Positions 772 through 62,127 of a stretch of 64,000 nt of DNA are shown one piece after another. This stretch comes from Nemertoderma westbladi (Eukaryota; Animalia; Xenacoelomorpha). A program made the position numbers and the translations under genes. The first letter of the stretch is position 1. Every line of letters begins with the position of its first letter. The stretch covers positions 37,156 to 101,155 of the forward strand of contig JAUCBJ010004906.1 in the NCBI GenBank assembly GCA_032718475.1, in the 5' to 3' direction. The notes below the pieces were generated by a model. That model was not told the DNA's origin. It was given only the letters and a program-made list of their open reading frames with translations, and did no database searches.

Positions 772-1392
772 TAGGTGGAACACTTACCTTCCGTTCTGTA
801 GCGTTCCCGCTACTGTATGTGGAACACTTACCTTCCGTTCTGTAGCGTTCCCGCTACTGTAGGTGGAACACTTACCTTCCGTTCTGTAGCGTTCCCGCTA
901 CTGTAGGTGGAACACTTACCTTCCGTTCTGTAGCGTTCCCGCTACTGTAGGTGGAACACTTACCTTCCGTTCTGTAGCGTTCCCGCTACTGTAGGTGGAA
1001 CACTTACCTTCCGTTCTGTAGCGTTCCCGCTACTGTAGGTGGAACACTTACCTTCCGTTCTGTAGCGTTCCCGCTACTGTAGGTGGAACACTTACCTTCC
1101 GTTCTGTAGCGTTCCCGCTACTGTAGGTGGAACACTTACCTTCCGTTCTGTAGCGTTCCCGCTACTGTAGGTGGAACACTTACCTTCCGTTCTGTAGCGT
1201 TCCCGCTACTGTAGGTGGAACACTTACCTTCCGTTCTGTAGCGTTCCCGCTACTGTAGGTGGAACACTTACCTTCCGTTCTGTAGCGTTCCCGCTACTGT
1301 AGGTGGAACACTTACCTTCCGTTCTGTAGCGTTCCCGCTACTGTAGGTGGAACACTGACCTTCCGTTCTGTAGCGTTCCCGCTACTGTAGGT
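772..1392 (-). repeat. 44-bp tandem array (14 copies) duplicating the furin exon 2 donor junction
   Basis: Minus-strand unit GTAAGTGTTCCACCTACAGTAGCGGGAACGCTACAGAACGGAAG; period 44 (cacttac at 781, 825 ... cactgac at 1353). Confidence 0.97.
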
Positions 1393-1719
1393 AGTAGCAA
1401 GGGTAGAAGAACAGCTCTCGGCGTACCAAGGAACACTTCCGTACTCCGATGTGGAACTTATACTCAATGTGTATATAGAGTTTGTGTACCCATCGCAGTT
1501 ACAGGAATCCTTCTTCTTGCCCCCGTTCCCTGAGGCCCAGACGAACACGGAACCCAGCCCCCCTCGTCCGGTCTCCACGCCCGTAACGAAGGCGAGCTTG
1601 GCGAACCGAGCCGGTCCGTCAACCTCGGCACCGTTGTCGTCCGGACCCCAACTAGCCGAGTAAATGTCGATATTCTCGGAATATTTGGATAAAGAAGTCG
1701 CTTCTACTGCGTCAGTTAC
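1360..1719 (-). CDS. Furin-like convertase, coding exon 2
   Basis: Acceptor TTTACAG at 1720; reads VTDAVEA...SASWGPDD...WASGNGG (oxyanion Asn)...CNCDGY...[11 protein letters not shown]; 360 nt; donor GTCAGT at 1359. Confidence 0.92.
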
Positions 1720-2136
1720 CTGTAAAGGGGGGGGGGGGGGGGGGGGGGGTGTTATTGAAAAGAGAAATGGAGGCTTAATGTATAGCTGGAATAGTTGGTA
1801 ATGTTTACGTTACCGGTACTTTTAATATTAATCACATTGAAGAATATAAAGATACAATATAACTTATATCTATTATTATTGTATACCGGTACTTACACTG
1901 AAAAAACGTACTGTTGATTTTTAAAAAACAAATAGTTTTAGGAAAGAACTATTAATTTATTTGGTGCATTTTTAACTCTTGCTCTTGGTTATTTTCGAAC
2001 ACCAATAGTTTTTTTTAATTATTGGTTTCTAAAACAACCTACCGGTAGAGTTTGGCTTAATTAAAAAACCATCATATCGTTTTTTCAGTGTAGTGATTGT
2101 TTATGTAGGTAGACCTGGTCTACCGTACTCACTCAC

Positions 2137-2838
2137 ATCTCCATCCAACATCCTCATCCCACCGACCCTCGCGTTGTACGCCACCCCGACGGCGCACTCT
2201 TTATTGTTAGCCAGCGCGGCCACCTCCCCAGCGCACCTGGTCCCGTGTCGGTTCTCGTTACTCGCTGTCTTCCTCGGGTAAGGATCATCGTCTGCGTCGT
2301 TGACGTCGTACGAGGCTTCCTTCGCGTAGTTCTTCGCGAGATCCGGATGGTCCCACTGTAACCCGTCGTCTAGGATACTGACAACGATACCCAGCCCCGA
2401 GTAACCCAACTCCCAAGCATCTTCTACATTCATATTACCTAGACTATCCTCCCGAGTTACGTACCATTCGTCGTGGTAGTGCTGATCGTTGAACGTAACC
2501 TCACGTTTAACACGACGTTTAGAACGCTGTTGTTGTACCCACCCGACAACGGCGTCACGTTTCAGTCTATGGTGCAGCAGTCTGTCTTGGTAGCGTGTAT
2601 CACGCCTCTTCCTGTGAGAAACCTCCTTGGAATGCAGCAGATATAGGTCTGTTCCTGGAATGATTTCGTGCAGGTAGACTAGGTTGTGTCGAGCTGCTAA
2701 CAAACGAGTTTGTTCTTCTCCGCCCGGTACATGAACCGCCCATTGATAAGAGTAGAGATGACACGAGCCCAGTTGGTTACACAAGCACATGTAGTACAGC
2801 ACTATTGGTACGGTAAAACCAACCAAATTAGTAGACAT
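2137..2838 (-). CDS. Furin-like proprotein convertase (S8B/kexin family), coding exon 1: signal peptide, prodomain, start of catalytic domain
   Basis: Hydrophobic N-terminus; RSKRRVKR maturation site; catalytic Asp (ILDDG) and His (NRHGTRCAGEVAA); RMLDGD followed by donor GTGAGT at 2136 (phase 0). Confidence 0.93.
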
Positions 2839-3640
2839 TTTTTCTACTGCAGTAGGCCTACTGCAGTACTGCTGTACCGGTAGTGTTCTACAGTACGCTG
2901 GTACGGGTACCAGTAAAAGCAGAATATACAGTAGGCCTAATACCTACGTCCTGTGCAACAATAGACCTATTTCAGTATCGGTTCCACAGCTTAGAATCTT
3001 AGATCCCACAGCACCTAAGACCCCCGAGCAAACTTACAGTAAATCTTGACTGAACTTATATCCAAACCAGACAAATTTAGATTCCACTCCCACACTATTC
3101 CAAAAGACATTGACTAGAGAATGAACATTAACTTCTTATGCTAGGGTGGTGGTGGTCCAAACAATTAGAATATTAACTTATTGCATGATCAGAGTGTTGT
3201 CAACTGGGTCCAAAGTTTGGTACTGCAGAAACCAAAATTTTGATTTGACATACACACGGCCAGACCAGAATATGCCTTTGTCTGTCTCCAATTTTGTGAT
3301 AATTAACTTCTAGCTGTCTTACTGTAGTACTCTATTGCATTGATATTTTATGTTTAGCTTATTCCCCATTAGAACCGCAATGATGATCCATTTAGTGGGT
3401 AAACAATAAGTATGTAAACAAATACTGTAGTTCTTGAGATATTGAATATAAAAGGTGAGACCAGCACGACACAACCAACCATTATTTGCCTTGATGCATT
3501 ATATACAAATACACTAAATACATATCATTATCATAGGATCAGGAATAGACTCTTAACCACAATGTTCGAATTACTGGGTGTAGATACTTTCAAAATAATT
3601 GTAGGCCTAGAGTGCTTAATCAGGCTACTGAAAAAGAGAC

Positions 3641-3900
3641 AGGGGGGGGGGGGGGGGTGTGGGAACTCGTCGCAAAACCCGCCTTGGCGAATTAATATCC
3701 CGCCTCAATGTTAAATTCCCAATTAAGGGAAAGGAGCGTTACAGTGGCACGCTATTTTAACCAAAGCAATAAACTAAACACAATAGAACAGGCTACAGTT
3801 TTATTTTTGACAGTAATCAGTTGTTATTTGCGTCGAATTTCCCCTGGAGAGGGATTAATTTTTATTGCGTCCAGTTCCCCCCCCCCCCCCCCCCCACCCC
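3641..3900. mobile_element. Dispersed MITE-like repeat bounded by poly-G and poly-C tracts (related copies near 31055-31195 and 61790-61975)
   Basis: Shared core AATTAAGGGAAAGGAGC(AG)GTTACAG...AACCAAA.CAATAAAC at about 3720, 31135 and 61800; ends G(n)..GAACT..CGCAA and TTGCG..AGTTC(n) are loosely inverted. Confidence 0.55.
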
Positions 3901-4986: not shown

Positions 4987-5910
4987 TTATAGTTTTTTAG
5001 AAGATTTGGCCAACCAGGAGGCCATACAACCAACAGATGCCGGGGACACAGGCTGGGCGGAGTGTTTGCGTTTACTTCCCGGTGTCTCTTTAGGATTACC
5101 AACCCATTCCACGACGCAATCGGCTGACTGATTCCTAGAGTTATTCACGAAACTGCTCACGGTATAAAACTCTAAGCTATCAGTTGCTTTAATCACGGTC
5201 ATTGCTTCATTCAGGTCATCGCTGAATAGCCAACACTTAAGACTTTCCTCGGAGGTTAGTACTGCTGGCATTCTACAATGTATATCGCTCATTCTACCCT
5301 CGGATGCCACTGTGATGGTAGTGAAGGAAACCAACCTTTCGGTAGAGTTGTTGTTATTTACATCGTATAAACCGGCTAATAACATCGGCGTTATCTTTCG
5401 ATTAGTCGCGTCTTCAGATTGCAAACTTGCCGCAAACGAATCACACTTACTCTCGTGTGGATTATGTATCAGATAGGCCTGTTTCTTGGATTTATCCAAG
5501 ACTTTCCATTCGTAATAACCGTCGATAACAAACGCGCAACGTTTCTTCTGGGAGAACGGATTGCGGAATAAAGGTTTATCGAGAAGCGATTCGGAGCGAC
5601 AGTTGGTTGTGTTGAGTTTAAACTCAGCGGGTGGTCCTCGATGCCACGCGGGGATGAGTCCCCATCGCATCGGGACCAGACAACGGGAGTACGTTCCGGT
5701 ACCGGTACCGTCCTCCCCCGACAGATGAGAGTACACCCGTTCGGCAACCAGGACAGCACCGGTGGTGGTCGGGGCCATGTTGTAGGACGGTTGATAGTCA
5801 CCCGTCCCATTGTACCATGTCGGTAGGCCGGTGGAGTTGTCTGGGCATTGGTAGGTGCAGGCCTGTTGGACGCCGCCCTTGGTTAAAGTACAAACTGTTC
5901 TGCCACACAT
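4987..5910 (-). CDS. HMCES: HMCES / SRAP-domain abasic-site processing protein, 307 aa, intronless
   Basis: N-terminal MCGR (catalytic Cys2), PSYNMAP, MRWGLIPAW, NCRSE, DGYYEWK, IHCRMP, C-terminal MASWL PIP-like motif. Confidence 0.95.
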   Translation of the reverse strand: MCGRTVCTLTKGGVQQACTYQCPDNSTGLPTWYNGTGDYQPSYNMAPTTTGAVLVAERVYSHLSGEDGTGTGTYSRCLVPMRWGLIPAWHRGPPAEFKLNTTNCRSESLLDKPLFRNPFSQKKRCAFVIDGYYEWKVLDKSKKQAYLIHNPHESKCDSFAASLQSEDATNRKITPMLLAGLYDVNNNNSTERLVSFTTITVASEGRMSDIHCRMPAVLTSEESLKCWLFSDDLNEAMTVIKATDSLEFYTVSSFVNNSRNQSADCVVEWVGNPKETPGSKRKHSAQPVSPASVGCMASWLAKSSKKL

Positions 5911-6385
5911 ACCGGTAGCTGCAATGTTAGTAGTTAGAACTAATTAACCTTATCAGATGACGATGACCAATGATGTGTCAAATTAAAATAGCCCTATATA
6001 TTTTCTACACGCGTATGATGTATGAGCAGGTGTCCTGTCTGGTAGTGCGAGCACATTGTCTGCCGCATTTCTTCACAATAAATTTAAACTTCCCGCCAAG
6101 CCAAGACGATCCAGAAGCAGAGGTATTTACATCCAATCACATAAAACCTACAAAGGCTGTCGAAATTATCAACATAAAATAAAAAAAAAGTATTGCAAAA
6201 AGATTTCGTTATCACTTTAAGGGCGCGGAGATTATTAAAACATATTTGTGTTCTTTCGTTAAGGTTTTCAAAAAATTATTTGCAATGTTTATAATTTTAG
6301 ATAAATAACGCACATTCGTGAGTTCTGCTAACGTGCGTTATAATATAGTTCAGGCAAAAATAACCCGAATTTAATATTATACAAA

Positions 6386-7735
6386 GGTTGGGTAGCTCAG
6401 GTGGCTGAGTGCCGGGCCTTCAATCTATTGGTTGTAGGTTCAGCCCCGCCAGGGTCCACTCAGCCTTTCATCCACTGGGGTCGATAAAATGAGTACCAGT
6501 TAAATAACTGGGAGCAAAACTTGGGAAAGGAGTAGCGCCCACCCCTACCTTCGGTTAGCAGATAGGAGTAGCGCCCACCACTACCTTCGGGTAGCAGATA
6601 GGAGTAGCGCCCACCCCTACCTTCGGAGCAGATAGGAGTAGCGCCCACCCCTACCTTCGGGTAGCAGATAGGAGTAGCGCCCACCCCTACCCTCGGGTAG
6701 CAGATAGGAGTAGCGCCCACCCCTACCTTCGGTAGCAGATAGGAGTAGCGCCCACCCCTATCTTCGGGTAGCAGATAGGAGTAGCGCCCACCCCTACCCT
6801 CGGGTAGCAGATAGGAGTAGCGCCCACCCCTACCTTCGGTTAGCAGATAGGAGTAGCGCCCACCACTACCTTCGGGTAGCAGATAGGAGTAGCGCCCACC
6901 CCTACCTTCGGGTAGCAGATAGGAGTAGCGCCCACCCCTATCTTCGGGTAGCAGATAGGAGTAGCGCCCACCCCTACCCTCGGGTAGCAGATAGGAGTAG
7001 CGCCCACCCCTACCTTCGGGTAGCAGAAATGAGTAGCGTCCACCCCTACCCTCGGGTAGCAGATAGGAGTAGCGCCCACCCCTACCTTCGGTAGCAGATA
7101 GGAGTAGCGCCCACCCCTACCCTCGGGTAGAAGATAGGAGTAGCGCCCACCACTACCTTCGGGTAGCAGATAGGAGTAGCGCCCACCCCTACCTTCGGGT
7201 AGCAGATAGGAGTAGCGCCCAGCCCTACCTTCGGGTAGCAGATAGGTGTAGCCACCCCTACCCTCGGCTACCAGAAAGGAGTAGCGTCCACCCCTACCAT
7301 CGGGTACCAGATAGGAGTAGCGTCCACCCCTACCCTCGGGTAGCAGATAGGAGTAGCGTCCGCCCCTACCTTCGGGTAGCAGATAGGAGTAGCGCCCACC
7401 CCTACCTTCGGGTAGCAGAAAGGAGTAGCGTCCACCTCTACCCTCGGGTACCAGAAAGAAGTAGCGTCCACCCCTACCCTCGGGTACCAGAAAGGAGTAG
7501 CGTCCACCCCTACCCTCGGGTACCAGAAAGGAGTAGCGTCCACCTCTACCCTCGGGTACCAGAAAGGAGTAGCGTCCACCCCTACCCTCGGGTACCAGAT
7601 AGGAGTAGCGTCCACCCCTACCCTCGGGTACCAGATACCGAAAGTGAAAGAGGAGCCTTCGGGTCGCCTCCGGCCGACTGTTAGCTTGCTGCGTCCTCTG
7701 CTTGCACATAAATCAGCGGCACATGAATTCCGAGA
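6386..7735 (+). mobile_element. tRNA-derived SINE with conserved central domain, internally expanded by a minisatellite
   Basis: A-box-like GGTAGCTCAGGTGG and B-box-like GGTTCAGCCC; central CTCAGCCTTTCATCC..GGGGTCGATAAAATGAGTACCAG resembles conserved SINE central domains (recalled); unique sequence resumes after the array (GAGGAGCCTTCGGGTCGCC). The 3' end is approximate. Confidence 0.7.
6528..7637. repeat. 36-bp minisatellite, about 31 copies
   Basis: Unit GGGTAGCAGATAGGAGTAGCGCCCACCCCTACCTTC, with variants changing gradually along the array. Confidence 0.96.
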
Positions 7736-10014: not shown

Positions 10015-10302
10015 CTATCACTATTCTACTACTAACAATTAAACACCCCCCCCCCCCCCCCCCTTATACTACTAACTGTTAATAACCCCCACCCCTCACC
10101 CTCTATCACTATGTCTACTACTAACCATTTAATACCCCCTCCCCATCCTCTATCGCACTACGTCTACTACTACAGTACTAACCGCGTTAAACAACCCCCC
10201 CCCCCCCCATCTATCACTACATCTACGTATACTTCTACTACTAACCATTAAACACCCCCCCCCCCCCTCACCCCACCACTAGGTCTACTACTAACCACTA
10301 AC
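10015..10302. repeat. Degenerate C-rich tandem repeat, about 50-65 bp, 5-6 copies
   Basis: Recurring CTACTACTAACC(A)TTAAACACCCCCC motif. Confidence 0.7.
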
Positions 10303-10580: not shown

Positions 10581-10907
10581 TCAAAGGCTCATACGATCAG
10601 ACATTTCCTGAGGACTTTCAAAGTTAACTATCAACATTTTGGTCTTCATGACGTCAACAAAAAGACCAACACTAGAAGCAGCATGTTCTAATGAGCTGAG
10701 GAGCCGTTGGGCTCCGTCTAATGATTCTGAGAGTACTCCTAAGTCAACAGCAAAACTAGAAGCAGCCTGTTCTAATGAGCTGAGGAGCCTTTGGGCTACC
10801 TCTAGTGATTCTGAGAGTACTCCTAAGTCATCAGCAAAGTCTAGATCAGTTAGGTACTTGGCAGGATTTCCTCGACTTTTGGAGCCAGTAGGTGGAGTTA
10901 CCACCAC
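10581..10907 (-). pseudogene. Non-LTR retrotransposon reverse transcriptase fragment with an internal duplication
   Basis: LTDLDFADDL (catalytic [YF]ADD) followed by ..SVGL.....KTK; the segment DLGVLSESL..AQRLLSSLE.AASS occurs twice. Confidence 0.82.
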
Positions 10908-11257
10908 CCGTCATCATAATGACTGACACACCAACCTTTTTTAAAAAAAACATCATTGTAAATTTGTTTATAATTTATTGATACTCTTTTACTCTGGATG
11001 GATAGGCGGTGTGCGGGGGTGGGGGGGGGGGGGGGGGGGGGTGTTAAAGATGAATTATTATGAAATTCTTGGATATTACTATGAACTTTGCAGCTTAACT
11101 AAGGCTTGGAGTGAGTTTATATGTAACACAGTAATTTTCTGTGAGACTAAAAGAAACATTTTATTATTAAATCTGCCAAAGCGAAAAATTACTAATAATT
11201 AAAGTAGAAAATGTATTAACGACTTTTAAAGGAAACAATAACTATATTTACAACGAA

Positions 11258-12271
11258 CTACAACCATCTGCCGGTTGCGTTGTAAATGAAACTCTGTTTC
11301 TCCGGATACTCGGGTCTGTAGGTAGCTGGTCCGGGTTTCTCTGTCGGGTCCGGAGCTATCCAACGCTCAGTGTTACTAACGAAGTAAGAACCCCTAATGT
11401 AGCCGCGTCTGGGACCCCCAATGTCTGTGGCGATATCGTAGGCGCCTGGTCCGGGGGCGGGGGGCGTGGGGGGCAGAGCCACGGGGGCCGCCGAGATACC
11501 CAGGTAGTGTCGACGGGGCAGGACGATGCGTTTAGCCGGCTCGATGGGCGCCCCGGGGTTGTACTGGGCGGGACCCGGGCCGGGGGCACCGTCCAACGCC
11601 ACCTTGCGTTGAGTACGGGAACGGAAGCTGGAGACCACGCTCTTAGCTGTTGGATGGAGGATGTCGTCTTTAACGTTGTAATGCCCGGGCGCCGGGGCAA
11701 CGTTAGTGACGTCAGTGAATCCTATTCGCTTACTGGTCGAACGGAATGCGGACGCCGCACCTCCTGACTCCGCCAACGGTTTCCCGCCATCCCGACACGT
11801 CTGTACGTTATACTGCGGCCCGGGTACGTCAGCGACCTTGTCGTGCGGCGCCGCGTACGGGAGAACGAATCCGGCGCTGCGTCGCGTCGGGTTGCGAACC
11901 GAGAGACCCGCGGTCTCGTAGCAACCGGGTCCCGGGGCGGGGTCCCGCTGCGCGCGCGGCATGCGCCTCCCGCGGGACGCGAAGGAACCGGTCCCCTTCG
12001 TGGAGACGGGCCCCCCCACGGAACCCGGTCGGTAGGCCCCAGGGCCCGGTACATCCGAGGTCGTCCCGTCCTCGAACCGCCTCGCCGTGGAACCGAACCC
12101 ACGCGAGTCCGAGTTGTCCGTCACTATGGTACGGTACTTGGAGGGTATCGAGCAGCGGGCTGTTGGTGTGGGTCGACTCTTGTACAACCTACCGACCGCG
12201 CCAGACGGAGCTGTACTCCGTCGGCCCTCCATCGACCCTATTGGTTTAATACTATCCACCATAAAACTCAT
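11258..12271 (-). CDS. STPG1: Sperm-tail PG-rich repeat protein (STPG1/MAPO2-like, SHIPPO repeats), 337 aa, intronless
   Basis: Multiple PGPG.Y repeats; N-terminal SIPSKY...GFGSTARRF and C-terminal KQSFIYN...W match STPG1 motifs as I recall them; GC-rich coding composition. Confidence 0.85.
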   Translation of the reverse strand: MSFMVDSIKPIGSMEGRRSTAPSGAVGRLYKSRPTPTARCSIPSKYRTIVTDNSDSRGFGSTARRFEDGTTSDVPGPGAYRPGSVGGPVSTKGTGSFASRGRRMPRAQRDPAPGPGCYETAGLSVRNPTRRSAGFVLPYAAPHDKVADVPGPQYNVQTCRDGGKPLAESGGAASAFRSTSKRIGFTDVTNVAPAPGHYNVKDDILHPTAKSVVSSFRSRTQRKVALDGAPGPGPAQYNPGAPIEPAKRIVLPRRHYLGISAAPVALPPTPPAPGPGAYDIATDIGGPRRGYIRGSYFVSNTERWIAPDPTEKPGPATYRPEYPEKQSFIYNATGRWL

Positions 12272-12559: not shown

Positions 12560-15500
12560 GCGGGTAATTCAAATACTCTGTAATGAATGGGATAATAGTT
12601 TAGGCTTGTTAAGCCAAGGAATGCCTGTTCATCACCATGGGTGATCTTCCACGGTAATCCCTTCCACTCTGTTTCCTAAAGGAATGCCTGTTCACCACCA
12701 TGGGTGATCTTCCACAGTAAACCCTTCCACTCTGTTTCCTAAAGGAATGCCTGTTCACCACCATGGGTGATCTTCCACAGTAAACCCTTCCAATCTGTTT
12801 CCTAAAGGAATGCCTGTTCACCACCATGGGTAATCTTCCACAGTAAACCCTTCCACTCTGTTTCCTAAAGGAATGCCTGTTCACCAACATGGGTGATCTT
12901 CCACAGTAAACCCTTCCACTCTGTTTCCTAAAGGAATGCCTGTTCACCAACATGGGTGATCTTCCACAGTAAACCCTTCCAATCTGTTTCCTAAAGGAAT
13001 GCCTGTTCACCACCACGGGTGATCTTCCACAGTAAACCCTTCCACTCTGTTTCCTAAAGGAATGCCTGTTCACCAACATGGGTGATCTTCCACAGTAAAC
13101 CCTTCCACTCTGTTTCCTAAAGGAATGCCTGTTCACCAACATGGGTGATCTTCCACAGTAAACCCTTCCAATCTGTTTTCTAAAGGAATGCCTGTTCACC
13201 ACCATGGGTAATCTTCCACAGAAAACCCTTCCAATCTGTTTTCTAAAGGAATGCCTGTTCACCACCATGGGTGATCTTCCACAGTAAACCCTTCCACTCT
13301 GTTTCCTAAAGGAATGTCTGTTCACCACCATGGGTGATCTTCCACAGTATACCTTTCCACTCTGTTTCCTAAAGGAATGCCTGTTCACCACCATGGATGA
13401 TCTTCCACAGTAAACCCTTCCAATATGTTTTCTAAAGGAATGCCTGTTCACCACCATGGGTAATCTTCCACAGAAAACCCTTCCAATCTGTTTTCTAAAG
13501 GAATGCCTGTTCACCACCATGGGTGATCTTCCACAGTAAACCCTTCCAATCTGTTTTCTAAAGGAATGCCTGTTCACCACCATGGGTGATCTTCCACAGC
13601 AAACCCTTCCACTCTGTTTCCTAAAGGAATGTCTGTTCACCACCATGGGTGATCTTCCACAGTATACCTTTCCACTCTGTTTCCTAAAGGAACGCCTGTT
13701 CACTACCGTGGGTGATCTCCCACAGTAAACCCTTCCACTCTGTTTCCTAAAGGAATGCCTGTTCACCAACATGGGTGATCTTCCACAGTAAACTCTTCCA
13801 ATCTGTTTTCTAAAGGAATGCCTGTTCACCACCATGGATGATCTTCCACAGTAAACCCTTCCACATTGTCTCATAAAGGAATGTTTGTTCACCACCATGG
13901 GTGATCTTCCACAGTAAACCCTTCCACTCTGTATCCCAAAGGAATGCCTGTTCACTACCATGGGTGATCTTCCACGGTAATCCCTTCCACTCTGTTTCCC
14001 AAAGGAATGCCTGTTCACCAACATGGTTGATCTTCCACAGTAAACCCTTCCACCATGTTTCCTAAAGGAATGCATGTTCACCACCATTGGTGATCTTCCA
14101 TAGTAAACCCTTCCACTCTGTATCCTAAAGGAATGCCTGTTCACCACCATGGATGATCTTCCACTGTAAACCCTTCCACATTGTATCATAAAGGAATGCC
14201 TGTTCACTACCATGGATGATCTTCCACAGTAAACACTTCCACTCTGTTTCCCTTAGGAATGCCTGTTCACCACCATGGGTGATCTTCCACAGTAAATCCT
14301 TCCACTCTGTTACCTAAAGGAATGCCTGTTCACCACCATGGGTGATCTTCCACAGTATACCTTTCCACTCTGTTTCCTAAAGGAATGCCTGTTCACCACC
14401 ATGGATGATCTTCCACTGTAAACCCTTCCACATTGTATCATAAAGGAATGCCTGTTCACTACCATGGATGATCTTCCACAGTAAACACTTCCACTCTGTT
14501 TCCCTTAGGAATGCCTGTTCACCACCATGGGTGATCTTCCACAGTAAATCCTTCCACTCTGTTTCCTAAAGGAATGCCTGTTCACCACCATGGGTGATCT
14601 TCCACAGTAAATCCTTCCACTCTGTTTCCTAAAGGAATGCCTGTTCACCACCAGGGGTGATCTTCCACAGTATACCTTTCCACTCTGTTTCCTAAAGGAA
14701 TGCCTGTTCACCACCATGGATGATCTTCCACTGTAAACCCTTCCACATTGTATCATAAAGGAATGCCTGTTCACTACCATGGATGATCTTCCACAGTAAA
14801 CACTTCCACTCTGTTTCCCTTAGGAATGCCTGTTCACCACCATGGGTGATCTTCCACAGTAAATCCTTCCACTCTGTTTCCTAAAGGAATGCCTGTTCAC
14901 CACCATGGGTGATCTTCCACAGAAAACTCTTCCACAGTAAACCCTTCCACTCTGTTTCCTAAAGGAATACCTTTTCACCACCGGGTGATCTTCCACAGTA
15001 AACCTTTCCACTCTGTTTCATAAAGGAATGCCTGTTCACCAACATGGGTGATCTTCCACAGTAAACTCTTCCACTCTGTTTCCTAAAGGAATACCTTTTC
15101 ACCACCGGGTGATCTTCCACAGTAAACCCTTCCACTCTGTTACCTAAAGGAATGCCTGTTCACCACCATGGGTGATCTCCCACAGTAAACCCTTCCACTC
15201 TGTATCCTAAAGGAATGCCTGTTCACCACCATGGATGATCTTCCACAGTAAACACTTCCACATTGTCTCATAAAGGAATGTCTGTTCACCACCATGGATG
15301 ACCTTCCACAGTAAACCCTCCCACTGTTTCCTAAAGGAATGCCTGTTCACCACCATGGGTGATCTTCCACAGTAAACCCTCCCATTCTGTTTCCTAAAGG
15401 AATGCCTGTTCACCACCATGGGTGATCGTCCACAGTAAACCCTTCCACTCTGTTTCCTAAAGGAATGCCTGTTCACCACCATGTGTTCTTCCACATTAAA

Positions 15501-15802
15501 CCCTTCCACTCTATTTCCTAAAGGAATGCCTGTTCACCACCATGGGTGATCTTCCACAGTAAACCCTTCCACTCTGCTCCCTAAAGGAATGCCTGTTCAC
15601 CATCATGGGTGATCTTCCACAGTAAACCCTTCCACTCTGTTTCCCAAGTTACCTTGGTTCCCATTTATCGACCGTAGGTAAGGGTGAATGCCAGGGTTGG
15701 GCTATGCTGCAGCATTTAAAGCACTGCGTCCAAATAGTGCATGCATCTAAGGGTCGAACCAGGGCTACATGATTGTCCACCACTAGACCAAGCTGCGCTG
15801 CT
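12560..15802 (-). mobile_element. tRNA-derived SINE whose 3' body is expanded into the 63-bp array
   Basis: Minus strand: A-box TGGTCTAGTGG (about 15780-15790), B-box GGTTCGACCC (about 15751-15760), central GCATTCACCC..GGTCGATAAATGGGAACCA, then AACTTGGGAAA running directly into the array. The 3' end is approximate. Confidence 0.68.
12617..15646. repeat. 63-bp minisatellite, about 48 copies
   Basis: Unit AAGGAATGCCTGTTCACCACCATGGGTGATCTTCCACAGTAAACCCTTCCACTCTGTTTCCTA. Confidence 0.97.
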
Positions 15803-16093: not shown

Positions 16094-19000
16094 CTAAAAT
16101 TAGATAACAAAATATTAATCATATTTGGTATTTTAGTGATGTTTGTAAACATGTGACGTCATTAGCTAAAGAGGTTAAATAAAAACGAATTCATGTGAAT
16201 GGCGGTTTTGTATTTCATTTTATTTTTATTTTTCATCGCGAATGCGCCGCGATTGCTATAATTAAGTAAAATGGTCGGACATAATTTAATATATAAATAT
16301 AGGACGTTATATGCAAGCAATATAGTAAAATACTCAGGTTTAATTTATTTTGTAACACTATATCGCTCTATGTTTTATTGAAGAATTGAGCAACAAAAAA
16401 AGTACCAATTTAAGAATAAAATTACGTATTAAAAGGGAAAAAAACACAGAAATTAATTTTCAATATTCTCTCTACCCTTTATTAACCTCGTTGGCGCTCG
16501 GTAAATAAAATACCTCGAGAATAGTGAAAATAATTCTACTTTTTTCCCACGTAATAAATAAATAATTACTATTTTTCGATTTTTTATAACTCAGAATCTA
16601 ATTGAATCACGGCAATCATATCGATTGACTTCTCACTCAATACAATAATATATCAAACAAAATTAACAAATTAATAAAGAAAATTAATCAGCAAAACGCC
16701 AGCCACCCCCCAGCGGTAGATGGAATAAATAAATATGAAAATGTGAACTGTATAAATAAAGTAAACCGTATTTCACGCGGTACTCGCGAGCGGTAATATT
16801 CAAGCAAACGAGCAACTAGAGTTAGTGGAATATAAAATATAGACCAAAGTGAAATACGGGTACTTTATTTAATTCGATTGCACCCGGCTAGACGGACACA
16901 ATATACTGAAATAATATCTTGGTATTATATTTCGCGCTATAAAATAGTACGATCACTATAAATAAACCAGTGAGTTGTTGTCTAATATAATAAATTGGTA
17001 TATAATATAATTACCCACCTGTCTACATGAGACATATCCAATGACTGCGCAGTACCAGAGGCTGTCTGTGGTACCGGTACACCTGTGCCATCAGCTAACG
17101 GGTTGTTCACTGTCAGGTGATTCCCAGAGAACATTCGGTTAGTAAACTCATCCAACGAATGCGCTTTCTGTTTTTCGTTGCTAAAGAGACTGTAAATAAT
17201 AAACAGTATTAAATAAAAATATCGAGAGAAGATTTATACCTTTTAATGCCACTCACCAAGTCCGTTTGTAATATAAACTGTTAGGTTCAATCTTGGTGTA
17301 GTGGTTGCATTGAATTCACATCTCCCGTAGAGATCGTGGGTTCGACCCCGGCATGGGGGACGTCAGTTTTCTTTTCAGCACGAATGCTTTGAAAGGACCA
17401 GCCAGGGCGCTATGCTCTGCCTTGCATCCGTAAGTGGTAGCTAACAGAGTACTGGAGATTCCTCTGGGGAGTATAGTTCTGGAGGGACCGCACTGGAAAT
17501 AAGTTAGCAGAATTTGTGCGTAATCCCTGATCTTAACAGCACTGACTATAATAAAACTATAGTTTCTTACTTTACTTTAAGCTAACAACATACACGATTA
17601 CTATATATACCGGTGTGTTTCATACTGATGTAGAGGTACGGTGCCCTAGTGCCGTAGTGTCAGTAACTTACCCTCACACGGCTGTGTCTGTAACTTACCC
17701 ACACACAGCTGTGTCTGTAACTTACCCACACACAGTAGTGTCAGTAACTTACCCACACACAGCTGTGTCTGTAACTTACCCGCACACAGCTGTGTCAGTA
17801 ACTTACCCACACACAACTGTGTCTGTAACTTACCCACACACAGTAGTGTCAGTAACTTACCCACAAACAGCTGTGTCAGTAACCTACCCACCCACAGTTG
17901 TGTCTGTAACTTACCCACACACAGTTGTGTCTGTAACTTACCCACACACAGCTGTGTCTGTAACTTACCCACCCACAGTTGTGTCTGTAACTTACCCACA
18001 CACAGTTGTGTCTGTAACTTACCCACACACAACTGTGTCTGTAACTTACCCGCACACAGCTGTGTCAGTAACTTACCCACACACAACTGTGTCTGTAACT
18101 TACCCACCCACAGTTGTGTCTGTAACTTACCCACACACAGTTGTGTCTGTAACTTACCCACACACAGCTGTGTCTGTAACTTACCCACACACAGCTGTGT
18201 CTGTAACTTACCCACACACAGTAGTGTCAGTAACTTACCCACACACAACTGTGTCTGTAACTTACCCACACACAGTTGTGTCAGTAACTTACCCACAAAC
18301 AGCTGTGTCAGTAACCTACCCACCCACAGTTGTGTCTGTAACTTACCCACACACAGTTGTGTCTGTAACTTACCCACCCACAGTTGTGTCTGTAACTTAC
18401 CCACACACAGTTGTGTCTGTAACTTACCCACACACAACTGTGTCTGTAACTTACCCGCACACAGCTGTGTCAGTAACTTACCCACACACAACTGTGTCTG
18501 TAACTTACCCACCCACAGTTGTGTCTGTAACTTACCCACACACAGTAGTGTCAGTAACTTACCAACACACAGCTTGTGTCAGTAACTTACCCACACACAG
18601 CTGTATCTTTAACTTACCCGCACACAGTAGTGTCAGTAACTTACCCACACACAGCTTGTGTCAGTAACTTACCCACACACAGTTGTGTCTGTAACTTACC
18701 CACACACAGCTTGTGTCAGTAACTTACCCACACACAGTTGTGTCTGTAACTTACCCACACACAGCTGTGTCTGTAACTTACCCACACATGGCTATGTCTG
18801 TAACTTACCCACACACAGATGTGTCTGTAACTTACCCACACACAGCTGTGTCTGTAACTTACCCACACACAGCAGTGTCTGTAACTTACCCACACACAGC
18901 TGTGTCCCCAGCCTGTCTCATTAGGTACGGATCAGCAGTAACAGCGTTCGCTGACGCCGGCGACGATACTCCTCTACGGAACGGAAGTCTTCCAACGAAC

Positions 19001-55000: not shown

Positions 55001-58000
55001 TACAACCTAAAATAATAGAATACAGAGGAACCAGTACTTGTACAACCTAAAATAATAGAATACAGAGGAACCAGTACTTGTACAACCCAAAATAATAGAA
55101 TATAGAGGAACCAGTACTTGCACAACCTAAAATAATAGAATACAGAGGGGCCAGTACTTGAACAACCTAAAATAATAGAATGCAGAGGAACCAGTACTTG
55201 TACAACCTAAAATAATAGAATACAGAGGAACCAGTACTTGTACAACCTAAAATAATAGAATACAGAGGAACCAGTACTTGTACAACCTAAAATAATAGAA
55301 TACAGAGGAACCAGTACTTGTACAACCTAAAATAATAGAATACAGAGGAACCAGTACTTGTACAACCTAAAATAATAGAATACAGAGGAACCAGTACTTG
55401 TACAACCTAAAATAATAGAATACAGAGGAACCAGTACTTGTACAACCTAAAATAATAGAATACAGAGGAACCAGTACTTGTACAACCTAAAATAATAGAA
55501 TACAGAGGGGCCAGTACTTGAACAACCTAAAATAATAGAATGCAGAGGAACCAGTACTTGTACAACCTAAAATAATAGAATACAGAGGAACCAGTACTTG
55601 TACAACCTAAAATAATAGAATACAGAGGAACCAGTACTTGCACAACCTAAAATAATAGAATACAGAGGAACCAGTACTTGTACAACCTAAAATAATAGAA
55701 TACAGAGGAACCAGTACTTGTACAACCTAAAATAATAGAATACAGAGGAACCAGTACTTGTACAACCTAAAATAATAGAATACAGAGGGGCCAGTACTTG
55801 AACAACCTAAAATAATAGAATGCAGAGGAACCAGTACTTGTACAACCTAAAATAATAGAATACAGAGGAACCAGTACTTGTACAACCTAAAATAATAGAA
55901 TACAGAGGAACCAGTACTTGCACAACCTAAAATAATAGAATACAGAGGAACCAGTACTTGTACAACCTAAATAATAGAATATAGAGTGGCCAGTACTTGT
56001 AATACCTAAAATAATAGAATACAGAGGAACCAGTACTTGTACAACCTAAAATAATAGAATACAGAGGAACCAGTACTTGTACAACCTAAAATAATAGAAT
56101 ACAGAGGAACCAGTACTTGTACAACCTAAAATAATAGAATACAGAGGAACCAGTACTTGCACAACCTAAAATAATAGAATACAGAGGAACCAGTACTTGT
56201 ACAACCTAAAATAATAGAATACAGAGGAACCAGTACTTGCACAACCTAAAATAATAGAATACAGAGGAACCAGTACTTGTACAACCTAAAATAATAGAAT
56301 ACAGAGGAACCAGTACTTGTACAACCTAAAATAATAGAATACAGAGGAACCAGTACTTGCACAACCTAAAATAATAGAATACAGAGGAACCAGTACTTGT
56401 ACAACCTAAAATAATAGAATGCAGAGGAACCAGTACTTGTACAACCTAAAATAATAGAATACAGAGGAACCAGTACTTGTACAACCTAAAATAATAGAAT
56501 ACAGAGGAACCAGTACTTGCACAACCTAAAATAATAGAATACAGAGGAACCAGTACTTGTACAACCTAAAATAATAGAATGCAGAGGAACCAGTACTTGT
56601 ACAACCTAAAATAATAGAATACAGAGGAACCAGTACTTGTACAACCTAAAATAATAGAATACAGAGGAACCAGTACTTACCTGGCATTGATTAGGTTCTA
56701 TTAACTCCCAGAACTGGCTGTTCAGTAAATTCTCTTGGAGGTATATACAGAATCCCAGATAGTTTTTGGCCGAATGTTCTAGAACACCAGCTTTTAGACA
56801 AACAAGTCTGATAATCCGAATGAAGTGATATCGAACCAACGGGGTGTGGTATCTGTGGATATGGGAGGAAATTGTTCATTTAATTAATTTAAATTTATTT
56901 ATTATAACAAATTTAAACAAACAAAATAACAATATTAAATGATGGATATCTATTCGATACTCTTACTTTAGTAGGTAGAGTGGTCAATCACTTTGGTTCT
57001 ACCTAGGATGTCCGGGGTTCGATCCCGTGCCGAACCAGTTACAATTCCGTAACTGATCCGTCAACCCAGCGATATGGGGACTTGGTTTCTGTTGGCGGAG
57101 TACAGAATAAGGTAAAAGGTAAAAGGAACCAAAAGTGCAGCTGATATTCTGACATTATTTTACTTTATTATCTGAATAATAAAGATAATATTTCACTGAC
57201 TTGGCCAATAAGTGAAGCAAGGCGTACAGAAGTCGGTTAGTGTTGGGGAAGTCGGTTCTATCGAATTTAAATCTCCCGCGACTTGTCTCCCAGTAGGTGT
57301 CCTTACCAGACGGGGGGTGGCAGACCACCTCAACGTTGTCGTCAAGGTTGTCTATGACGAGCGCTCTGAAAATAAAATAAACTCGAAACCATGGAAACAG
57401 TAGGAATTGTTTTGCGATCACTCGGCTAGATGGTATTTTGAGGAACTGGTTTCATAAACTGTTTCTTTATTACATTTATTGTTTTTTCTTCAAAATCTAT
57501 TTTATTTCATGACCGAAGAGAGAAACGATAGACGCGGTAACGAAAACGCAGTAATATAAATATTATAATAATAATATTATATAAAATTTTCAAATACTTA
57601 TTTCAGTAATTTTCTTTGTGAACAAAAGTAATTATTTATTACATGGGGAAAAATTAGCTCGATAAATTCTATTTACCGAGCGCCAGCGAAGTTAATAAAG
57701 TGTCGATAGAATATTGAAAAAAATGCTACGTTTTTCCCATGTAATACGTAATTATTATATTCTTAAATTGGTACTTTTTTTGCTGCTCAAATCTTTAATA
57801 AAACATAGAGCGATATAGTGTTACAAAATAAATTGAGCTGCAGTATTTTACTATATTGCTTCCATAGTTACAGCGTTTCATATTATTGTACTCTGCAACT
57901 CCGGATTCTGCCTTACTCAATGTTAAATGATTTAGTGTCCTCGAATATTTATAAGGTAAGTTCTAAGCAACTAAAGTTACAATAACTTTTCAGTGTGTGG

Positions 58001-61000
58001 ATGGATTTTAAGTAAATTACTTGCAAACCTTAAACCTTTTCTATTTCGATGCTCTTTCAACTTTAAGAAATTTAATAAATTCCACAAAAAATATTTAAAT
58101 TTACTTTTTTTCGCCGGGAATAGAATTAAAATCAATGCAATCCTATGGGATACTTTTTTCCCTAAGAAAGTAGGCCTACCTACCCCCTTTTCACCCGATT
58201 TTTGGGTATATTCGAGCGAAATTTAACTGGCTAAATAAATTGTAAACCATCAGAATTAAAATGCTCAAAGAATATAATTTTCAGTAACAAATTGGTTACC
58301 TGGATACGGTACACTTCGCCTTGGCAACGTGAGACTCGTCCACCGGGATCGATTGGGCTGTAGCCATGGTAACTATTTCATTGGGCAATATAGATACAGT
58401 TTCAACGTGGTCGTTGGACATGGCGTGGACTGTTGCCATGAGAACTCCGGACACTAGTTTGGGACGGATGGAAGGGAGACCTGTGGAAGATGGTCCTTCA
58501 TTATTAAATGTTTATGATAAGTATTATTAATGTGACAGAAATAACTGTAAATCATAAGGGAGCATCCATAAAGGACATCCGAGGTCTGGACATCTTCAGA
58601 GAGGGGTGAGGGGGGGGGGGGGGGGGGGGGGGTGTTGGCTAAATTCGGACGTCCGATATTTTTATTTTTTAGATTTATTATAATATACTATTAATTTATC
58701 AAACTTAAACAATTTCAAAATTTATTACAAAATTATATCATAATCGTGACTTTCACACCAAAATAACATCATGAATTTTGATAAATTCATCTGGCACCCA
58801 TACAGCCGACTCTAATGTTGTTAGCTACAATAGATCCAGCAATTAGGTCTATTTCATTACAGAACCAACCTATATCTGACATGGCGGTTGACTCAGGATC
58901 CAGGGTACTAGCCGTTGTTTTGGGAGTTCCGAATATAGAGGTACAATCACTTTCAGCGTACTGAGTATCGAAATCCTGATTCACATCATCTTCGGTCTTC
59001 CGAGCGATGGCGATTTCAGTCCTGTGAGAAACAACCGGTAGAGTGACATATATCCGGACCGACAACCAATACATACAGACGTGAGAAACAACCGGTAGAG
59101 TGACAGATATCCGGTCCGACAACCAATACATACAGACGTGAGAAACAACTGGTAGAGTAACAGATATCCGGTCCGACAACCAATACATACAGACGTGAGA
59201 AACAACCGGTAGAGTAACAGATATCCGGTCCGACAACCAATACATACAGACGTGAGAAACAACCGGTAGAGTAACAGATATCCGGTCCGACAACCAATAC
59301 ATACAGACGTGAGAAACAACCGGTAGAGTAACAGATATCCGGTCCGACAACCAATACATACAGACGTGAGAAACAACCGGTATAGTAACAGATATCCGGT
59401 CCGACAACCAATACATACAGACGTGAGAAACAACCGGTAGAGTAACAGATATCCGGACAGACAACCAATACATACAGACGTGAGAAACAACTGGTAGAGT
59501 AACAGATATCCGGTCCGACAACCAATACATACAGACGTGAGAAACAACCGGTAGAGTAACAGATATCCGGTCCGACAACCAATACATACAGACGTGAGAA
59601 ACAACCGGTAGAGTAACAGATATCCGGACAGACAACCAATACATACAGACGTGAGAAACAACTGGTAGAGTAACAGATATCCGGTCCGACAACCAATACA
59701 TACAGACGTGAGAAACAACCGGTAGAGTAACAGATATCCGGTCCGACAACCAATACATACAGACGTGAGAAACAACCGGTAGAGTAACAGATATCCGGTC
59801 CGACAACCAATACATACAGACGTGAGAAACAACCGGTATAGTAACAGATATCCGGTCCGACAACCAATACATACAGACGTGAGAAACAACCGGTAGAGTA
59901 ACAGATATCCGGACAGACAACCAATACATACAGACGTGAGAAACAACTGGTAGAGTAACAGATATCCGGTCCGACAACCAATACATACAGACGTGAGAAA
60001 CAACCGGTAGAGTAACAGATATCCGGTCCGACAACCAATACATACAGACGTGAGAAACAACCGGTAGAGTAACAGATATCCGGACAGACAACCAATACAT
60101 ACAGACGTGAGAAACAACTGGTAGAGTAACAGATATCCGGTCCGACAACCAATACATACAGACGTGAGAAACAACCGGTAGAGTAACAGATATCCGGTCC
60201 GACAACCAATACATACAGACGTGAGAAACAACCGGTAGAGTAACAGATATCCGGACAGACAACCAATACATACAGACGTGAGAAACAACTGGTAGAGTAA
60301 CAGATATCCGGTCCGACAACCAATACATACAGACGTGAGAAACAACCGGTAGAGTAACAGATATCCGGTCCGACAACCAATACATACAGACGTGAGAAAC
60401 AACCGGTAGAGTAACAGATATCCGGTCCGACAACCAATACATACAGACGTGAGAAACAACCGGTATAGTAACAGATATCCGGTCCGACAACCAATACATA
60501 CAGACGTGAGAAACAACCGGTAGAGTAACAGATATCCGGACAGACAACCAATACATACAGACGTGAGAAACAACTGGTAGAGTGACAGATATCCGGACCG
60601 ACAACCAATACATACAGACGTGAGAAACAACCGGTAGAGAAACAGATATCCGGACCGACAACCAATACATACAGACGTGAGAAACAACTGGTAGAGTGAC
60701 AGATATCCGGTCCGACAACCAATACATACAGACGTGAGAAACAACCGGTAGAGTAACAGATATCCGGACAGACAACCAATACATACAGACGTGAGAAACA
60801 ACTGGTAGAGTGACAGATATCCGGTCCGACAACCAATACATACAGACGTGAGAAACAACCGGTAGAGAAACAGATATCCGGACCGACAACCAATACATAC
60901 AGACGTGAGAAACAACCGGTAGAGTAACAGATATCCGGTCCGACAACCAATACATACAGACGTGAGAAACAACCGGTAGAGTAACAGATATCCGGTCCGA

Positions 61001-62127
61001 CAACCAATACATACAGACGTGAGAAACAACTGGTAGAGTGACAGATATCCGGACAGACAACCAATACATACAGACGTGAGAAACAACTGGTAGAGTAACA
61101 GATATCCGGTCCGACAACCAATACATACAGACGTGAGAAACAACTGGTAGAGTAACAGATATCCGGTCCGACAACCAATACATACATACAGACGTGAGAA
61201 ACAACCGGTAGAGTAACAGATATCCGGTCCGACAACCAATACATACAGACGTGAGAAACAACTGGTAGAGTGACAGATATCCGGACAGACAACCAATACA
61301 TACAGACGTGAGAAACAACTGGTAGAGTAACAGATATCCGGTCCGACAACCAATACATACAGACGTGAGAAACAACCGGTAGAGTAACAGATATCCGGAC
61401 CGACAACCAATACATACAGACGTGAGAAACAACTGGTAGAGTGACAGATATCCGGACAGACAACCAATACATACAGACGTGAGAAACAACTGGTAGAGTA
61501 ACAGATATCCGGTCCGACAACCAATACATACAGACGTGAGAAACAACCGGTAGAGTAACAGATATCCGGACCGACAACCAATACATACAGACGTGAGAAA
61601 CAACTGGTAGAGTGACAGATATCCGGACCGACAACCAATACATACAGACGTGAGAAACAACCGGTAGAGAAACAGATATCCGAACCGACAACCAATACAT
61701 ACAGACGTGAGAAACAACTGGTAGAGTGACAGATATCCGGACCGACAACCAATACACACATACGTGAGAAACAACGTGAGAAAAAAAATGTTGAATATAA
61801 ATTAGGGGAAAAGAGCAGGTTACAGAAAATAACGATATGATATTCTAACCAAAACAATAAACGTGAATCAATAGCATAGATTACAATATAATCATTTTTG
61901 GTGGTAATCAGTGTTGATTTTATCCCGGAGAGGGGTGAATTTTGATTGCGTAGAGTCCCCCCCCCCCCCCCCACCTCCCATCTGTAATGTACACACCTTG
62001 GAGATATGTATGTGAGCAGATCCATAGTGAGTTCCAACCAGGCGGCCACTAGGTGGCAGGCTGAACATGTATCCATCTGTACCAACTCGTTCTTACATGT
62101 GTGGTTACCACCCCATGGAATCCGTAC
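15960..62127 (-). CDS. UNC79: UNC79 (NALCN channelosome subunit) orthologue, 11 internal exons: 62127-61997, 59021-58870, 58480-58300, 57365-57201, 56852-56681, 32190-32008, 31653-31401, 19522-19372, 19036-18890, 17189-17019, 16093-15960. Incomplete at both ends.
   Basis: All exons are bounded by AG/GT with matching phases (1840 nt joined, no stop). Motifs WETSRGRFKF, CGADVFWRLV...DWRKRF, CLESQFDSVVDDRPMIL, SWQFFLGRFDTLSLE and ISLLMKFM...KAMNTVIRHLNVLLG match the unc-79 family as I recall it. Confidence 0.9.
16310..16570. mobile_element. Dispersed AT-rich repeat, with an inverted copy at about 57600-57865
   Basis: TATAGTAAAATACT...TTTATTTTGTAACACTATATCGCTCTATGTTTTATT...AAAGTACCAATTTAAGAATA...GGCGCTCGGTAAATA is reverse-complemented at about 57670-57860. 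Confidence 0.75.
17019..17189 (-). CDS. UNC79: UNC79 exon
   Basis: TTTACAG|...LFSNEKQKAHSLDEFTNRM...MSHVD AG|GTGGGT; phase 2/2 fits both neighbours. Confidence 0.8.
17293..17540 (+). mobile_element. tRNA-derived SINE
   Basis: A-box TGGTGTAGTGG, B-box GGTTCGACCC, no intact cloverleaf; 3' GGGACCGCACTGGAAATAAG...GTGCG.AATCCC stem-loop resembles a LINE-derived tail. Confidence 0.65.
17655..18906 (-). repeat. 27-bp tandem array (about 46 copies) duplicating an UNC79 donor junction
   Basis: Minus-strand unit GTAAGTTACAGACACAGCTGTGTGTGG; exon end GACACAGCTGTGTGTGG|GTAAGT at 18890/18889. Confidence 0.96.
18890..19036 (-). CDS. UNC79: UNC79 exon
   Basis: CCACAG|...SRTQSVRSLRAEFVGRLPFRRGVSSP...DTAVC GG|GTAAGT. 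Confidence 0.82.
19372..19522 (-). CDS. UNC79: UNC79 exon
   Basis: TTCTAG|GT CGT TTC GAC: RFDTLSLESHLD...KKLRRAKFA AG|GTGAGA. Confidence 0.88.
19506..19719 (-). repeat. 35-37-bp array, exon-proximal part, duplicating an UNC79 acceptor junction
   Basis: Minus-strand unit GTCGTCTTTACACGCTTATTTTATACTTTTGTTGTAG versus the real junction TTTTGTTCTAG|GTCGTTTCGACACGCTT. Confidence 0.93.
20275..21885. repeat. 42-bp minisatellite inside the transposon
   Basis: Unit CACAGATCCTCCTGTACTTCCCACTCCGTCTCCCACACCCTC, degenerating toward 22030. Confidence 0.95.
22258..22560 (-). pseudogene. Transposase remnant
   Basis: KIRWIYLEAGHGKGPADGVGGTIKRTL; truncated, with no full-length ORF. Confidence 0.72.
23469..29425 (-). 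repeat. 38-bp array, distal continuation of the acceptor-derived array (about 140 copies), interrupted by a duplicated transposon end at 23896-24483
   Basis: Plus-strand unit CTACAACAAAAGTATAAAATAAGCGTGTAAAAACAAAA, the same family as 19506-19719. Confidence 0.96.
23896..24910. repeat. 1015-bp tandem duplication of 22881-23895 (transposon end plus adjacent array)
   Basis: Near-identical sequence at offset 1015, including a second TIR+ATAT ending at 24483-24487; twin ORFs 22818/23857 and 23179/24194. Confidence 0.93.
29939..30543. mobile_element. Palindromic (foldback) MITE with about 280-bp inverted arms, Tc1/mariner-like end
   Basis: TA|CACCATGTCCTAGAATATAGTGTCGTAATTCAGTGAC ... GTCACTGAATTACGACACTATATTCTGGGACAGGGTG; arms are nearly perfect around a short spacer at about 30220-30250. 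Confidence 0.88.
31401..31653 (-). CDS. UNC79: UNC79 exon
   Basis: TTTGCAG|VIQSALAHMF...CLESQFDSVVDDRPMIL...SWQFFL G|GTGAGT. Confidence 0.92.
32008..32190 (-). CDS. UNC79: UNC79 exon
   Basis: TTTTAG|VVQVLAPLIMHCVSMPCGADVFWRLV...VVTGNL|GTGAGT; 183 nt, phase 0/0. Confidence 0.92.
32171..56680 (-). repeat. 40-bp satellite (about 610 copies) making up an entire 24,490-bp UNC79 intron; each unit copies the acceptor junction
   Basis: Minus-strand unit GTTGTACAAGTACTGGTTCCTCTGTATTCTATTATTTTAG runs from the donor at 56680 to the acceptor at 32191. Confidence 0.98.
56681..56852 (-). CDS. UNC79: UNC79 exon
   Basis: CCACAG|...YHTPLVRYHF...YLQENLLNSQFWELIEPNQCQ|GTAAGT. Confidence 0.88.
56972..57115 (+). 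mobile_element. tRNA-derived SINE fragment
   Basis: A-box-like AGGTAGAGTGG and B-box GGTTCGATCCC, followed by GTCAACCCAGC...ATGGGGACTTGG; no intact cloverleaf. Confidence 0.55.
57201..57365 (-). CDS. UNC79: UNC79 exon
   Basis: TTTCAG|...ALVID...YWETSRGRFKF...LLHLLA AA|GTCAGT. Confidence 0.86.
58300..58480 (-). CDS. UNC79: UNC79 exon
   Basis: CCACAG|...LPSIRPKLVSGVLMATV...AKAKCTVS AG|GTAACC; open frame, phases 1/2. Confidence 0.82.
58870..59021 (-). CDS. UNC79: UNC79 exon
   Basis: CTCACAG|G ACT GAA...TEIAIARK...AMSDI G|GTTGGT; phases 2/1 fit both neighbours. Confidence 0.78.
59024..61780 (-). repeat. 57-bp array (about 48 copies) abutting an UNC79 acceptor
   Basis: Minus-strand unit GTCTGTATGTATTGGTTGTCGGACCGGATATCTGTTACTCTACCGGTTGTTTCTCAC; the last copy ends CTCAC-AG|exon. 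Confidence 0.97.
61997..62127 (-). CDS. UNC79: UNC79 exon (first one in window)
   Basis: TTTCTAG|VRIPWGGNHTCKNE...CSACHLVAAWLEL...YISP AG|GTGTGT. Confidence 0.83.

Follow-up and report, generated by a model that had tools for sequence, protein, structure and literature searches.

Mirage-type minisatellites at splice junctions of furin-like and unc-79 genes in Nemertoderma westbladi

Tandem repeats lying across exon-intron boundaries have been described in amphioxus as 'mirages', in Adh3 and the globins BflGb6 and BflGb9 (PMC3087553) and in troponin C (TnC) and PGBD5 (PMC3902484). Comparable variable-number tandem repeats (VNTRs) occur on the donor side of introns in human F7 intron 7 (37 bp), 6-16, CBS intron 13, lamin B2 and PDGF intron 4, and splicing of F7 is confined to the donor furthest upstream, even where pseudo-sites are stronger (PMC1557585). 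Here we describe tandem arrays at splice junctions of a furin-like convertase gene and of unc-79 in 64,000 nucleotides (nt) of the xenacoelomorph Nemertoderma westbladi (contig JAUCBJ010004906.1, positions 37,156 to 101,155; this whole stretch is referred to as the window, and all coordinates are its own). An initial annotation of this DNA had raised the possibility that such arrays are new. The class is already published as amphioxus mirages and human VNTRs, and four of the window arrays are mirages by definition. Notable here are the size of one of them, a 40-bp array, the local density of the arrays, and a furin junction at which the first donor is a weak one.

The amphioxus mirages reported in these papers have 2-7 copies, whereas the window arrays reach about 611 copies and fill a 24.5-kb intron; two window arrays also differ from them in abutting a splice site without copying it. 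As in the human F7-type VNTRs, the first unit spans the exon-intron boundary, and an upstream donor prevails over better matches to U1, the furin donor GTCAGT being preferred to 13 copies of GTAAGT. The human VNTRs, as described there, are single loci of 5-26 copies on the donor side only, while the two neighbouring genes described here carry two arrays on the donor side and three on the acceptor side. Splicing at the real site, as found below for furin, is reported both for mirages and for F7 (PMC3087553, PMC3902484, PMC1557585). The Rogers model of intron gain by tandem duplication of AG|GT (cited in PMC3087553) likewise involves duplication across a splice signal, but no new intron or exon is evident here, the window units already include intron, and the three junctions tested stay colinear with protein. 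The accessible text of PMC10078293 treats repeats that modulate splicing and contains nothing on junction-spanning units. Among titles and abstract starts of open-access literature, with subscription journals mostly outside the search, we found neither junction arrays with hundreds of copies nor a genome-wide test of such arrays.

Arrays at the exon edges of furin and unc-79

Arrays were located by tandem-repeat detection (TRF), and splice-site copies were counted by sequence pattern. Six arrays lie at or close to exon edges.

763-1392, minus strand: 44-bp array, 14.3 copies; unit of 33 nt exon and 11 nt intron, at the donor of furin exon 2
17657-18906, minus strand: 27-bp array, 46 copies; unit of 17 nt exon and 10 nt intron, at the donor of unc-79 exon g
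19506-19716, 23486-23899 and 24501-29427, minus strand: 37/38-bp array; 17 nt of exon in the unit, at the acceptor of unc-79 exon f
32175-56678, minus strand: 40-bp array, 611 copies; unit of 24 nt intron and 16 nt exon, at the acceptor of unc-79 exon d
59024-61775, minus strand: 57-bp array, 48 copies; non-exonic, stopping 2 nt before unc-79 exon a
12616-15644, minus strand: 63-bp array; non-exonic, beginning 8 nt past the end of the unverified unc-79 exon k

The 44-, 27-, 37/38- and 40-bp arrays have units that span an exon-intron boundary, which defines a mirage; the 57- and 63-bp arrays are wholly non-exonic and junction-adjacent and fall outside that definition. The units of the four mirage arrays, at 27-44 bp, have the size of minisatellites, which among published mirages span 10-160 bp, and their copies retain AG or GT signals. 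By pattern, the 44-bp array contains 14 donors, namely 13 GTAAGT and the used GTCAGT, which is the first (1359). The 27-bp array has 45 donors, the 37/38-bp array 138 acceptor-like sites and the 40-bp array 592 acceptors by a strict pattern, compared to 611 units by TRF. The initial annotation had likewise stated that four arrays copy a splice signal together with exon sequence. It had also placed the arrays exactly on the splice site; they are at the junction, but not exactly so, since their units extend 33, 17, 17 and 16 nt into the exon and the 57-bp array ends 2 nt short of it. The 57-bp array repeats a pyrimidine tract without AG, and an AG follows 1 of 50 copies of TTTCTCAC, the one at the real site. 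The 63-bp array may be a sixth junction case; position 15652 there can be read as a donor (AAG|GTAACT) or as an in-frame stop. Two further arrays, of 36 and 42 bp, lie at none of the mapped splice sites.

The 40-bp array runs from intron position +3 to 16 nt within exon d and constitutes the entire 24,490-nt intron between exons c and d. The three segments of the 37/38-bp array are one array, interrupted by a transposon-like insert and by a partial duplicate of that insert. The age of this array sufficed for it to be split by the 3.75-kb element, which has inverted ends, and to drift away from its exon sequence. Array interiors are homogenised and the first and last units deviant: 96 of 125 units are identical in 24495-29440, as are 11 of 13 units of the 44-bp array. 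Neither the five junction units nor the 63-bp unit recur elsewhere in the window, a single isolated 14-mer excepted.

Short direct repeats are visible at several arrays. The 44-bp array is flanked by ACCTA, so that this proposed microhomology stands as a 5-nt fractional unit, while the 9-nt homology AAGTACTGG proposed for the 40-bp array is possibly secondary. A minority of 40-bp units, through most of the array, carry exon-like CCCC rather than TTCC, and a 4-nt CCCC repeat may have been the starting point of the array, which a later deletion would then have joined to the donor. Because the array may stem from that repeat, both AAGTACTGG and a 35-nt 'ancestral' c-d intron are uncertain.

The window contains four animal genes, all on the minus strand: the furin-like convertase, HMCES, a sperm-tail PG-repeat gene and unc-79. 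The first three were named by Pfam and unc-79 by matches to solved structures. The exon models are as follows.

2-715, minus strand: furin exon 3; Pfam S8 and P-domain, acceptor cag|GTAGTG, runs off the window
1360-1719, minus strand: furin exon 2; cDNA-like contig (run X3, record 9), 3' junction colinear in 117 of 119 homologues
2137-2880, minus strand: furin exon 1, coding part, 5' end approximate; Pfam, homologues and X3 contig
61997-62127, minus strand: unc-79 exon z; open frame, weak match to UNC79 788-827 (E 0.26-0.85)
59021-58870, minus strand: unc-79 exon a; frame and splice signals
58480-58300, minus strand: unc-79 exon b; frame and splice signals
56852-56681, minus strand: unc-79 exon c; weak match to UNC79 915-965 (E 9), colinear with d
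32190-32008, minus strand: unc-79 exon d; strong UNC79 match (E 2e-12)
31653-31401, minus strand: unc-79 exon e; strong UNC79 match (E 2e-20)
19522-19372, minus strand: unc-79 exon f; moderate match to UNC79 1116-1164
19036-18890, minus strand: unc-79 exon g; frame only
17189-17019, minus strand: unc-79 exon i; open frame
16093-15960, minus strand: unc-79 exon j; moderate UNC79 match
15806-15653, minus strand: unc-79 exon k, unverified; open frame, no homology support

The furin model has three coding exons and two introns and is open over 606 codons; the residue count across its two junctions is identical in 119/119 and 117/119 homologues. The unc-79 model has 11 exons and an open frame of 609 codons. 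Exons a, b, g and k gave no UNC79 matches and were modelled from frame and splice signals, as was exon i from its open frame and splice signals; searched against proteins of up to 2000 aa, exon d gave no homologue. Two of the array-bearing junctions are colinear with UNC79 (chain 7w7g numbering). At the 40-bp array exon c ends at residue 969 and exon d starts at 970, and at the 37/38-bp array exon e ends at 1114 and exon f resumes at 1116, with a glycine codon split between them. Together the two models comprise 12 complete introns of 153-24,490 nt, and five of the 12 carry a junction array, the same count as in the initial annotation.

Junction excess and splice-site use

For the chance test, arrays were collapsed to one unit, wholly coding seeds were excluded, and 26 sites and a distance of 5 nt were used. 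By chance, 0.53 of 8 arrays would be expected within 5 nt of a site; the probability of at least 5 of 8 is 6e-5 and, restricted to the 12 introns, that of at least 5 of 6 is 7.5e-5, both values being local, for a window chosen after the fact and without correction for that choice. Tandem arrays make up about 41 kb of the window, and their collapse reduces it to 23,223 nt. The array-bearing introns then measure 72 nt (furin intron 2), possibly 35 nt (c-d), about 296 nt (57-bp array), about 485 nt (27-bp array) and, with inserts included, several kb (e-f, 37/38-bp array); the seven array-free introns measure 153-1447 nt. We considered tiny ancestral introns as the sole cause of the excess. The chance that the five named arrays would all touch a junction is 0.3 at introns of 72 nt and 6e-4 at a uniform 350 nt, which, with array-free introns of the above lengths, makes this explanation insufficient. 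The placement of the arrays at junctions is locally non-random.

Run X3, although labelled 'DNA?', is cDNA-like: 2893-3600 is uncovered and one contig skips furin intron 1. A loose end at 6079 resembles what we take to be a template-switch adaptor. Record 9 of this run, 2376 nt long and of depth 140, aligns without mismatch to 2135-2872 and 1358-1717 and continues for another 1278 letters. Its match stops at 1358, exactly the position predicted for a join of 1360 to 715, because the intron and exon 3 both start with GT. The stretch used for alignment, from 1300, held the second donor, whose use would have extended the match; the first donor was thus the one used. Furin splicing uses the exon-proximal donor ahead of 13 decoys, on the evidence of one assembled contig from one run, in which minor isoforms would escape. 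In the window allele the used donor reads GTCAGT and the decoys the consensus GTAAGT. Normal furin mRNA is produced despite the 44-bp array, as seen in the spliced contig.

Every decoy tested yields a stop within the model. The initial annotation had reported a frameshift or stop for the 44-, 27- and 40-bp arrays (now 13/13, 44/44 and 591/591), and the same is true of the 37/38-bp array (137/137). From the gene models, unc-79 is predicted to use the exon-proximal copies too, including the last of about 611 acceptors. No X3 contig fell on 31300-32280 of unc-79, a result that says nothing on expression.

Two side observations concern the furin transcript. Each 44-bp unit (716-787) has a weak, pyrimidine-rich CAG 19 nt past the donor, defining a decoy mini-exon of 25 nt with an in-frame TAG at its start, and the furin contig makes no use of it. 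At 2877, three X3 contigs have a loose end that is absent from the window and that ends like an acceptor or leader on the furin strand; it could derive from another locus or be a trans-spliced leader.

Origin of the arrays and of their clustering

We consider it moderately probable that the arrays are locus-born mirage minisatellites, with their junction excess arising through survival rather than targeting. A short stretch across or beside an exon edge would be doubled by slippage between direct repeats of 4-9 nt, and the array would then grow into the intron by unequal exchange, the exon-proximal copy still acting as splice site, as seen in furin and predicted for unc-79. Decoys would be tolerated through pairing of the sites nearest the exon, and a mis-splice would carry a stop that may expose it to nonsense-mediated decay. 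Survival would act as a filter: wholly exonic seeds would be purged, seeds free in the intron would be lost to transposon insertion and deletion, and seeds overlapping a splice signal would be kept by selection and be able to re-expand. Short ancestral introns (72 and possibly 35 nt) would contribute to the excess.

The content of the units favours a local origin, as they contain the gene's own exon sequence. Their ends lie 16-33 nt within exons or 2-8 nt outside, on donor and acceptor sides alike, and such variable offsets speak against spliced RNA or lariats as templates. Dispersed high-copy repeats occupy non-coding DNA (depth in run X2 about 200,000, compared to about 20), and the arrays away from mapped junctions (36 and 42 bp) lie in or beside mobile-element-like DNA.

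Several points weigh against the survival reading. The survival step is one that we infer. Exon sequence is absent from the 57- and 63-bp units, of which the second is under hardly any constraint, and a proximity bias fits them equally well or better. Short introns are insufficient, as two of the array-bearing introns collapse to about 296 and 485 nt, and the 35-nt collapse of the c-d intron may reflect a later deletion. RNA support comes from furin, as a single contig from a single run, and the choice of the last of about 611 acceptors in unc-79 is a prediction.

Alternatively, a mutational bias at exon edges may seed the duplications, for instance through breaks coupled to transcription or splicing or through stalled replication where chromatin or GC content changes. 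The mechanism behind mirages is termed unclear, and possibly general in cephalochordates, in PMC3087553. Five and perhaps all of the six arrays outside mobile-element-like DNA are within 8 nt of an exon edge, two of them beside rather than across the site, and the junction excess itself (P = 6e-5) is as such a bias would produce. However, the offsets vary and never fall at the cut itself, the arrays show no polarity towards donor or acceptor, and the short flanking repeats are typical of any slippage-born minisatellite and so expected without it. We regard this bias as unlikely, though a serious candidate. For the mutational process aimed at splice junctions that had been suggested at annotation, the local excess holds up and splice-precise targeting, given the variable unit ends, is unsupported.

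Minisatellites may also be produced throughout the genome, with the window a chance cluster picked from very many, which we judge improbable. The share of array DNA (about 41 of 64 kb) fits this, and P values near 1e-4 to 1e-5 are attainable by selection among some 250,000 windows, but only some windows hold so many arrays and splice sites, and similar clusters have been published for amphioxus. The window alone separates neither survival, edge bias nor chance cluster.

A function of the arrays, as recursive-splicing ratchets or as poison sites that tune furin or unc-79 output through nonsense-mediated decay, is very improbable. Ratchet points are known from long introns of Drosophila and vertebrates, and the 40-bp unit resembles them in its tract-AG|GT and in its long intron. 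Ratchet points are few and kilobases apart, whereas the window has hundreds of sites 40 nt apart at which the regenerated donor is weak or absent. On a 9-position donor consensus, 563 of the 591 decoys of the 40-bp array score 5/9, 25 score 6/9 and 3 lack the GT, while the 12 real donors score 6-9, above the CAG|GTTGTA (5/9) that would result if exon c were spliced to a decoy of the 40-bp array. Of the 137 decoys in the 37/38-bp array, 131 have an AG that no GT follows, and the 44-bp donors have no upstream pyrimidine tract (6 pyrimidines in 20 nt), so that an acceptor followed by a consensus donor, the mark of a ratchet point, is found in none of these three arrays. Stops follow from every decoy tested, as poison sites would require, but they are the default outcome of intron retention, and the lone furin contig uses the true site. 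Use of some pseudo-donors is on record for human VNTRs (6-16 and CBS, summarised in PMC1557585). Recursive splicing at array copies is unsupported by these signals; of the decoy tolerance envisaged in the initial annotation, use of the exon-proximal site holds for furin, and the sequence gives recursive removal no support.

The 44- and 40-bp arrays are real DNA, not assembly artefacts. S2 is a second DNA sample, set apart from the window by substitutions and a 9-nt gap. Its contigs end at the entries of these arrays, at 1363 (44-bp) and 32201 (40-bp), as expected of a 31-mer graph that runs into a repeated unit, and one S2 contig connects the 40-bp unit to exon c, so both ends of the 40-bp array are present in DNA contigs. 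The depth of the 40-bp unit contig was 4300-5000 in run X1, compared to 10.5 for the flank, and 381.5 compared to 4.16 in run X5. Over 905 nt X1 is identical to the window; it is possibly the source sample. The resulting unit-to-flank ratios, about 410-480 (X1) and about 90 (X5) against 611 units in the window, are depths rather than copy numbers and may reflect allele length or library bias. An artefactual origin of the arrays has next to no likelihood: exact lengths lack long-read support and, of the junction arrays, the comparison with other runs covered those of 44 and 40 bp, but the S2 breaks, the contig joining unit and exon c, the high unit depth in X1 and X5 and the many variants among units all speak against it.

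Neighbouring features and significance

HMCES (4990-5914) and the PG-repeat gene (11261-12269) each have a single coding exon, and the 606 codons of furin (2-2880) are interrupted by just two introns, a pattern suggestive of an intron-poor lineage. Transcript contigs of HMCES extend to about 6079 (5') and 4350 (3'). Best full matches to the first furin exon (pro-region) have 53-56% identity and those to HMCES 33-40%, both spread across many phyla; the window furin is 51% identical to Branchiostoma furin. The unc-79 model ends at 15653, near mid-protein (about residue 1290-1340 of 2654), with three further same-strand genes to its left, so that unc-79 is either split or truncated here or has those genes nested within an intron. 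Inside the intron of the 27-bp array, 17257-17277 is a possible in-frame microexon of 21 nt with a GTGAGT donor, which stands outside the model.

The element interrupting the 37/38-bp array is the following.

19717-23472, no strand assigned: transposon-like insert with inverted ends, carrying the 42-bp array (20278-22028)

The insert is DNA-transposon-like, with TA-rich flanks and two open reading frame pieces, for which Pfam gave no match (22043-22602). It is partly duplicated at 23900-24490, and a second copy in opposite orientation runs from about 62590 to the window end, so that the 42-bp array is cargo of a twice-present element. Upstream of the HMCES transcript start is the 36-bp array, whose bin, of very high depth, also takes in an adjoining stretch resembling a short interspersed element (SINE). 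SINE-like stretches are present at 6380-6527, 17330-17420 and 57000-57100, and the 36-bp array begins right after the first; they carry motifs that we take to resemble tRNA B-boxes. At 29975-30494 there is a near-perfect inverted repeat of 520 bp (246-nt arms, 96%), like a miniature inverted-repeat transposable element, and at 10584-10910 a reverse-transcriptase fragment (RVT_1, E 4e-4, below the Pfam cut-off) with an 84-bp duplication. For organisms B and C, no run could be usefully aligned to the window at 80%.

In practical terms, arrays of this kind mislead gene prediction and short-read assembly. The origin of mirages is called unclear in PMC3087553, and the mechanistic splice test reported in PMC1557585 covers the donor side. 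In the c-d intron the copies share with the true acceptor the tract, the AG, the upstream context and the first 16 exon bases, and RNA from this junction would measure how the distance to the next donor and the exon bases past +16 determine the choice of a 3' site. Survival and mutational bias could be cleanly tested against each other in a genome dense in junction arrays. We find it doubtful that an edge bias acting genome-wide grows many introns from their own splice sites while the spliceosome picks the last of about 610 acceptors. If this were true, a 24.5-kb intron with no unique branch site or tract would be an extreme natural test of 3' site choice, and edge bias would provide a route to giant introns without transposons.

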